DNA of 10,282 bases from a virus (lineage: Duplodnaviria; Heunggongvirae; Uroviricota; Caudoviricetes), in IMG/VR virus record IMGVR_UViG_2917865565_000003, positions 1-10,282 of that record. The stretch is one strand, 5' to 3'. The notes beneath the pieces were generated by a model, which made no database searches, was not told where the DNA came from, and saw nothing but the letters and a program-made list of their open reading frames with translations. Both the position numbers and the translations under genes were made by a program. The first letter of the stretch is position 1. Each line of letters starts with the position of its first letter. Below, piece by piece: positions 6,976 through 7,210 of this stretch.

Positions 6976-7144
6976 TTAATATGCCACAAAGGTTTTTGTT
7001 AACGAACTGCGTCTTTTTTCTTTCCTGGGTGATGATTGTTTTATAATAAACAAATAACAACATTTATTCTTGTAAAAGTAATAATATCTCTTTGGTGATC
7101 GAATTTATTGATCGCATTTCAATTAAACAAATAAGGAGTTTTTT

Positions 7145-7210
7145 ATGCCAAAAATTACCGGTGTTCTAGTGAGCCACCATGTGTTCGATATAAAAAAAAG
7201 ACATGGCTAA
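7145..7210 (+). CDS. Leader mini-ORF (21 codons) with strong Shine-Dalgarno, ending in an A8 run and overlapping the start of the cassette gene
   Basis: AAGGAG at 7133-7138, 6-nt spacer, ATG 7145. Product MPKITGVLVSHHVFDIKKRHG. A8 at 7192-7199. Stop TAA 7208-7210 overlaps ATG 7203 of the next ORF. Confidence 0.35.
   Translation: MPKITGVLVSHHVFDIKKRHG

Follow-up and report, generated by a model that had tools for sequence, protein, structure and literature searches.

A one-base extension of a short A tract probably splits an invasin D4/D5-like gene in lambdoid prophages of Escherichia

We analysed a 10,282-nt stretch of DNA (IMG/VR virus record IMGVR_UViG_2917865565_000003; hereafter the window), which is identical to positions 2-10283 of PDIJ01000011.1 (assembly GCA_004745205.1; unclassified Escherichia sp.) and represents the early-left (pL) arm of a lambdoid prophage from a non-coli Escherichia strain. 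The subject is a 21-codon open reading frame (ORF), here called the mini-ORF, that runs through a tract of eight A's (A8) and overlaps the start of a 214-codon ORF, both lying on a cassette bounded by inverted repeats. The two ORFs are very probably one 233-codon gene that one extra A has split, and the split form would be a frameshift allele occurring naturally in a few Escherichia strains. A homopolymer frameshift allele is an ordinary kind of event, which here has hit a conserved and uncharacterised gene.

One gene split by an extra A

The elements described in the initial annotation are all present in the sequence: a Shine-Dalgarno (SD) motif upstream of ATG 7145, and a 21-codon ORF (translation MPKITGVLVSHHVFDIKKRHG, followed by a stop) that runs through the A8 tract to TAA 7208-7210. 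This stop overlaps ATG 7203 of the 214-codon ORF as ATGGCTAA (7203-7210). The sequence and a motif check over 6980-7260 agree that the longer ORF has no SD of its own: AAGGAG at 7133-7138 is the sole SD-like motif within this interval, and ATG 7203 is preceded by AAAAAAAAGAC. As ATG 7203 sits 58 nt after ATG 7145, the 214-codon ORF is in the +1 frame. The tract, the longest A run anywhere in the 10.3-kb window, makes up the codons Ile16-Lys17-Lys18 (ATA AAA AAA) inside the 5′ coding region, where its length sets the reading frame.

Explicit edits of the tract corrected the direction of the frame change. A single extra A had been expected to fuse the two frames, but the first ORF is 62 aa long with A9, compared to 61 aa with A6, 21 aa with A8, and fused products of 233 aa with A7 and 234 aa with A10. 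Frame fusion requires one A less or two A more.

Using the A7-fused 233-aa sequence as the query, we found 14 database relatives, which all come from Escherichia. P0004 (156 aa) is truncated, and the other 13 are full-length single ORFs of 218-233 aa with 40-94% identity and 99-100% query coverage. The mini-ORF residues are present in every full-length homologue, and M1, T5, G6, V7, V9, D15 and M20 are invariant in the 13 sequences; in one sense, the conservation of this peptide puts the arrangement far beyond chance. The SD motif AAGGAG is kept as well, in both homologues and paralogues. The 90%-identity cluster contains 36 sequences; among the 15 members listed, 13 are intact 233-aa proteins encoded on >120 contigs from E. 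marmotae and other non-coli Escherichia. The only listed members with the frameshifted allele are P0015 (214 aa) and P0023 (197 aa), which lie on the same 5 contigs and correspond to two start calls, RefSeq WP_135383335.1 and a GenBank call, respectively. Because the homologues are single ORFs, the mini-ORF is most probably the real 5′ end of a 233-codon gene, of which the window carries a +1A frameshift allele. The 214-aa and 197-aa entries would accordingly be truncated readings of this frameshifted gene, which matters for its annotation.

The same comparison bears on the proposal that the mini-ORF encodes a leader peptide acting by translational coupling. An upstream ORF designed to bring ribosomes to the SD-less downstream start would fit the ATGGCTAA overlap and the strong SD that stands upstream of the mini-ORF and is missing at ATG 7203; termination-reinitiation is plausible at such a junction, maybe as a by-product. 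However, the two-ORF layout is confined to A8 alleles, 13 of 13 full-length homologues are fused, and the leader residues are conserved as protein, aligning to the start of invasin D4 as structural strands of an immunoglobulin (Ig)-like domain. We consider a designed leader extremely unlikely, and the peptide should not be treated as a regulatory upstream ORF.

Similarity of the fused protein to invasin domains D4 and D5

Residues 23-101 of the fused protein match the Pfam family Invasin_D4 (PF21764) with 35.4 bits against a cut-off of 27 (E 1.6e-8), and positions 3-108 of the family profile align to residues 303-395 of Yersinia invasin (PDB 1CWV) with an E-value of 7e-8. In this alignment the mini-ORF residues KITGVLV pair with TLTGILV, the first strand of D4 in 1CWV. 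The AlphaFold model has a mean predicted local distance difference test (pLDDT) score of 64.7; it is good over residues 1-118 and places β-strands at residues 4-9 and 12-15 with pLDDT 74-79. Structural similarity search using Foldseek gave 1cwv as the best PDB match, with an E-value of 5.5e-9 and a template modelling (TM) score of 0.58 on the query. For the D5 part, the Foldseek alignment spans 237 columns and aligns the motifs GLYQEWG and TLWGEWG, but residues 140-221 are poorly modelled (pLDDT <50).

An exhaustive profile search beyond the family retrieved the C-terminal tips of inverse autotransporters, which combine IAT_beta, Big_1 and Invasin_D3/D4 domains; the remote relatives P0059 and P0065 carry those domains, and the inverse-autotransporter matches begin at profile positions 3-5. 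As the alignments and strands start at positions 3-5, the 19 residues missing from the 214-aa ORF would be structural parts of the Ig-like domain. The fused 233-aa protein has no signal peptide, and a domain search found no IAT_beta barrel and no Big_1 repeats in it. Given that it has neither signal peptide nor barrel, the protein is best described as a homologue of an adhesin tip module, not as an inverse-autotransporter adhesin. Searches against PADLOC, PHROGs and NCBIfam gave no match to a known defence gene, phage family or curated family.

One of the closest known systems is the integrin-binding D4-D5 superdomain of Yersinia pseudotuberculosis invasin (1CWV, PF21764), to which homology runs from the first D4 strand through the D5-like WGEWG motif. 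Compared to that invasin, the present protein is prophage-borne and stands alone with 233 aa, without signal peptide, β-domain or Big_1 repeats, and its C-terminal half is modelled at low confidence. It belongs to an uncharacterised family of stand-alone invasin D4/D5-like proteins, in which the A7 and A8 alleles offer ready-made natural ON/OFF variants for functional work.

Distribution of the A7 and A8 alleles

Five NCBI assemblies and one independent Logan assembly (SRR6148324) contain a coding sequence for exactly this 214-aa product, and all of them have A8. The tract context was surveyed with a pattern scan that allowed A6-A10. A8 was found at about 10 contigs (the window, L002-L007, L030, L031 and L033) and A7 at L001, L011-L029, L032, L034 and L035; A6, A9 and A10 were not seen at the tract of this gene across the surveyed loci. 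The comparison of homologues for tract variants, suggested in the initial annotation, thus returned both A7 and A8, and the tract is not uniformly A8. Among the IMG/VR records, A8 occurs at L030, L031 and L033 and A7 at L032, L034 and L035, whereas the species representatives in GTDB have A7 at L028 (E. whittamii) and L029 (Escherichia sp. E1V33) and none has A8. The E. marmotae loci L011-L027 and the metagenome contig L001 also have A7. The tract-context scan of JGI metagenomes gave zero hits with either A7 or A8.

The A8 alleles comprise five cassette haplotypes and reside in prophages with different immunity and replication modules, whose attachment sites are ybhC, yniD/ydjM, fliE and a resistance-nodulation-division (RND)-efflux locus. 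This distribution bears on whether A8 is a sequencing or assembly error in a homopolymer whose true length is A7. Homopolymers are error-prone on some platforms, and the five A8 NCBI assemblies have neighbouring accessions (GCA_0047452xx-4xx, contig prefixes PDIx) that suggest a single project. Against an error, A8 is found in five distinct haplotypes on at least four prophage backbones and in the independent Logan re-assembly, and the tract length A7/A8 segregates with flanking single-nucleotide polymorphisms (SNPs). Moreover, intact 233-aa alleles of other strains (TGB82429.1 and TGB60514.1) fall in the same accession series as the A8 proteins (TGB...), which suggests that A8 and intact alleles came from one sequencing project. 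Because A8 spans haplotypes and backbones, and because one project likely gave A7 too, the suspected artefact is so improbable that it can be set aside.

Probable recurrent changes in tract length

The A7 alleles at L029, L034 and L035 are 99.4% identical to the window, and between L006 (A8) and L034/L035 (A7) the difference over the whole cassette is confined to the A tract. Two synonymous SNPs at 7150 and 7241, 42 nt either side of the tract, distinguish two backgrounds. The A/T background contains A8 alleles only (the window, L002, L004, L007 and L030), whereas the C/C background contains both A8 (L003, L006 and L033) and A7 (L034 and L035), and the four-gamete test between tract length and these SNPs fails. 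The presence of A8 on two SNP backgrounds implies that the length changed twice or more, or that a conversion tract of <90 nt was involved.

A paralogue with 70% identity, located in a different island, normally carries Met-Lys-Lys codons with A6 at the corresponding site. In Escherichia sp. E2593 this paralogue (L046, ~990-1010) has independently gained one A (A6 to A7), and its annotated ORF starts from Met20. It presents the same architecture of a mini-ORF followed by a Met20-ORF, in addition to a second frameshift near the C-terminus (…AIFFGRK and a stop). These observations suggest that the Lys-Lys A tract is a recurrent +1A mutational hotspot, and the two paralogues together would make a clean natural example of a short Lys-Lys A run behaving in this way. 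Intact members of the family have A5 (ATT AAA AAT), A6 (ATG AAA AAA G) or A7 (ATA AAA AAA G), and the tract is no longer than Ile/Met-Lys-Lys/Asn codons with the common AAA give.

The only serious rival to a plain frameshift allele is a selected phase-variable contingency switch, in which slipped-strand mispairing between A7 and A8 toggles the invasin-like protein, perhaps together with inversion of the cassette. ON (A7) and OFF (A8) tracts occur among cassettes that are 99.4-100% identical, the four-gamete test fails, the paralogue has its own +1A at the matching site, the position of the tract near the start of the coding region recalls classical contingency genes, and the cassette is known in both orientations. 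The tract also resembles contingency loci in surface-protein genes of Neisseria, Haemophilus, Campylobacter and Helicobacter: a 5′ coding tract in an adhesin-like gene, ON and OFF lengths among near-identical strains, and evidence of more than one length change. Nevertheless, it differs from such loci in being short, codon-given and not kept long in the family. The ON tract is just A7, the A5-A7 tracts of intact relatives bear no sign of lengthening or maintenance, and only two lengths were seen at this gene. Runs of 7-8 A's mutate slowly in mismatch-repair-proficient enterobacteria compared to classical contingency tracts, and the host here is such an enterobacterium, unlike the hosts of contingency loci. 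In addition, the second frameshift of the E2593 paralogue and the family members cut by insertion sequences (IS) or deletions point to decay. We therefore regard a selected switch as unlikely. Of the slippage-prone switch proposed in the initial annotation, what stands is that the length varies, with an A7 majority and an A8 minority clade, by repeated changes or a very short conversion tract, and with a parallel change in the paralogue. Its direction is reversed, the window being OFF and A7 being ON, and there is no sign of selection as a switch. A frameshift allele arising at a mutational hotspot is the preferred account.

Signs of decay elsewhere in the family include frameshifts near the C-terminus, interruption of the neighbouring toxin gene by IS elements and, in E. 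whittamii, a deletion. In the last case (L028, 375-770), the A7 gene is cut after about codon 120, and the deletion joins it to a truncated integrase beside a sensor-kinase gene; this is further evidence of gene decay in some lineages. The ratio of nonsynonymous to synonymous polymorphism (pN/pS) between cassette clades is 0.5-1.0 on about 15 differences, and there are 0-1 differences within the A8 clade, too few to separate a pseudogene from a gene; the rows for alleles with C at 7150 were left out of the underlying table.

The 70%-identical paralogue (232 aa; L008 6001-8034; L038-L043) is always immediately upstream of a Scabin-like ADP-ribosyltransferase gene, which has 424 aa when intact and is often split by IS elements. 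The pair adjoins genes for a 329-aa tyrosine recombinase and an autotransporter. This pairing hints at an invasin-tip-like protein that works with a toxin. An invertible promoter near the tyrosine recombinase gene was considered and dropped, the intergenic region containing no inverted repeat of at least 16 nt.

A cassette found in both orientations

Two inverted-repeat arms enclose a 955-nt segment that contains the gene (Table 1) and has a GC content of 37.7%, compared to 44.7% for the window. In the window and 13 other loci the segment is in the direct orientation, so that the gene is co-directional with the theta-like gene, a 104-aa gene, xis and int. In 19 loci (L001, L011-L027 and L032) it is exactly inverted between the same flanks, the theta gene and the 104-aa gene. 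The inverted loci include a complete chromosome, CP056159.1 (L026), whose protein the sources assign to E. marmotae. The arms are not the same in all loci, a 34-nt indel having moved from one arm to the other, and L032 combines an interior of the direct clade with the inverted orientation. Among the called genes of the loci no invertase-like gene was found, only phage int and xis. Homologous recombination between the arms would be the simplest explanation of the inversion. We also considered the arms as ends of a widespread mobile element and rejected this, as the arm sequence occurs in IMG/VR only together with the cassette.

The arrangement resembles invertons such as the Mu G, P1 C and e14 P segments and fimS, in that a gene on a segment bounded by inverted repeats occurs in both orientations between identical flanks. 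Compared to invertons, the arms are 58-120 nt long and look more like ordinary homology than like short recombinase sites, an adjacent invertase gene is missing, and both orientations have been seen only when different strains are compared. A cassette in both orientations is a more unusual feature than the A tract, and may have the more general interest.

A8 is found only in cassettes that are co-directional with pL, in 10 of the 14 direct loci and 0 of the 19 inverted loci, which are phylogenetically non-independent; the association may simply reflect lineage. Slippage between A7 and A8 and inversion of the 955-nt segment could be combined in a doubly variable module, selected in the lambdoid prophages of non-coli Escherichia as a device for phase variation. 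If so, inversion would set the gene with or against read-through from pL, and the restriction of A8 to co-directional cassettes would reflect selection against expressing the protein from pL. We consider such a device quite unlikely.

An identical A8 cassette (100% over 703 nt; the window versus L002-L006) was observed inside prophages with different repressors, replication genes and recombination modules. The theta gene, the cassette and the 104-aa gene appear to form a module that is swapped among lambdoid prophages as a unit of ~2 kb.

Predicted expression of the A8 allele

We propose that replication slippage added one A to the Ile16-Lys17-Lys18 run (A7 to A8) in the window strain and a few relatives. 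As read from the codons, ribosomes starting at ATG 7145 in an A8 allele stop after 21 codons at TAA 7208, and the ancestral protein needs A7; the A8 allele is predicted to be null or a strong hypomorph for the full-length protein. Three kinds of leakage may be envisaged. First, termination-reinitiation at ATG 7203, which the terminating ribosome would have passed by 5 nt in the ATGGCTAA overlap, might yield a product minus the first two β-strands. The A-rich leader may aid SD-independent initiation. Second, a rare +1 slip of tRNA-Lys from AAA 7196-7198 to AAA 7197-7199, with the rare AGA codon waiting in the A site, would give exactly the ancestral …DIKK-DMANG…; the junction peptide of the trans-frame or full-length product would be …VFDIKKDMANGSFPK. 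Third, an mRNA missing one A would restore the frame, and is expected to be rare. The tract can presumably revert as well, so that in populations it may act as a crude on/off switch of low frequency.

Rescue at the RNA level would depend on the direction of slippage. Transcriptional slippage of E. coli in A/T runs is almost wholly +1 insertion, and deletions within the run are very rare (PMC5574713). Slippery runs are generally selected against from a length of 9 nt (PMC1088944). We judge such rescue to be probably inefficient, since A8 needs a change of -1 or +2 nt and E. coli RNA polymerase mostly adds one.

These points bear on programmed recoding, according to which A8 is normally decoded into the full-length protein via transcriptional slippage or a +1 frameshift at A AAA AAA AGA, with a fixed ratio of products. 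Re-pairing of tRNA-Lys in the +1 frame would be perfect, the next zero-frame codon is the rare AGA, and loss of one A in the RNA would restore the exact ancestral protein; furthermore, slippage-restorable ORFs disrupted at A/T runs are documented, and 8 A's are enough in some organisms (PMC1088944). However, the frameshifted two-ORF layout is not conserved, being limited to the minority A8 alleles, and no stimulatory element is evident, an Rfam search of 6600-8600 having returned zero RNA-element matches at E up to 1. The +1 insertion favoured in E. coli makes A9, which is still out of frame (PMC5574713), and a run of 8 is below the usual 9-nt threshold of slippage selection (PMC1088944). Programmed recoding appears very unlikely. 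A -1 ribosomal frameshift programmed on A AAA AAA was rejected for landing in the wrong frame.

A frameshift allele of a single gene has close counterparts in the 'authentic frameshift' alleles at enterobacterial A/T runs, such as the E. coli pair in Fig. 5 of Baranov et al. 2005 (PMC1088944). In both cases a one-base change of an A run splits a single-ORF gene, and the annotation shows two ORFs, the 5′ one short and the 3′ one longer. They differ in that the run here has 8 A's, not 9, and that repair needs the loss of an A whereas E. coli RNA polymerase mostly adds (PMC5574713). A further parallel is the 'savior indel' at a G run of herpes simplex thymidine kinase, where a homopolymer indel kills most expression and the run allows a trickle of product (PMC5009743). 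Its likeness to the A8 allele is purely an analogy.

Some points weigh against a simple loss-of-function allele. All A8 alleles keep an intact 214-codon ORF; with 3 substitutions at most between them, they have had no time to decay and give no power to test constraint. A functional product truncated at the N-terminus is possible in view of the invariant Met20 and the stop/start overlap. Moreover, the recurrent +1A and the higher frequency of A8 in direct cassettes (10/14, not independent) could mean that selection has favoured the OFF or truncated state.

Prophage setting and further features

The coordinates of the gene, its cassette and the flanking genes are listed in Table 1.

Table 1. Features of the split gene, the cassette and its flanks in the window
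Feature	Position	Strand	Remarks
DNA polymerase III theta-like gene, left flank	6680..6838	+	Pfam DNA_pol3_theta on the called gene
Left inverted-repeat arm	6886..6977		In E. marmotae loci, a perfect repeat of 58 nt
955-nt segment between the arms (leader, gene, hairpin)	6978..7932		Orientation between the same flanks differs among strains
Small leader hairpin GTGATCGA-ATTTA-TTGATCGC	7095..7115	+	Holds two GATC sites
Shine-Dalgarno AAGGAG, probably of the whole gene	7133..7138	+	6 nt upstream of ATG 7145
Whole disrupted gene, invasin D4 (Ig-like) plus D5-like, 233 aa if the tract is A7	7145..7847	+	Pfam Invasin_D4; 1CWV by sequence and fold
Mini-ORF, probable authentic 5′ end (codons 1-18) of the ancestral 233-codon gene	7145..7210	+	Followed by 3 out-of-frame codons and TAA
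A8 homopolymer (ATA AAA AAA A)	7192..7199	+	Probable +1A frameshift site; A7 in intact alleles
214-codon rest of the gene (probable codons 20-233 of the ancestral protein)	7203..7847	+	Starts at family-invariant Met20, without SD
Hairpin 3′ of the gene	7866..7904	+	Possible weak terminator or 3′ end stabiliser; no clean U-tract
Right inverted-repeat arm	7933..8023		Outer part runs into the humD (UmuD'-like) remnant
humD remnant, right flank	7986..8140	+	…SAGDSHYREGILQGALLVVDSSLTPVDGSLLVCA/YRIKRYRKHPR…; without 5′ end; 12-nt deletion

The pL arm is ordered as cII/cro-side genes, Peptidase_S24 repressor, N-like, Kil, anti-RecBCD, theta-like, the region of the disrupted gene, two small ORFs, xis and int (9209-10282). 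Patches of the window match E. coli phage mEp043 at 97-98% identity. The stretch 6800-8100 had no match in 5,426 complete E. coli genomes except for an 87-nt match to humD, and none among PLSDB plasmids. The humD gene encodes a UmuD'-like protein of the Peptidase_S24 family, and a P1-like E. coli plasmid (L036) retains the intact order of theta followed by humD. From this comparison, the cassette and its repeats appear to have taken the place of the humD 5′ end.

The promoter scan of the + strand upstream of the gene found no consensus sigma-70 promoter; by eye, a perfect TATAAT is present at 7042-7047, without a good -35 element. The hairpin 3′ of the gene was not called by the terminator scan. 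In the leader hairpin, compensatory changes were found among homologues at 2 of the 5 predicted pairs. Its two GATC (Dam) sites are 14 nt apart and are not kept in L001 or in the paralogues. The T run between the SD motif and ATG 7145 (7139-7144) also varies: the window has T6, whereas L003 and L033 have T7, so that in these two loci the spacing between SD and start is 7 nt instead of 6.

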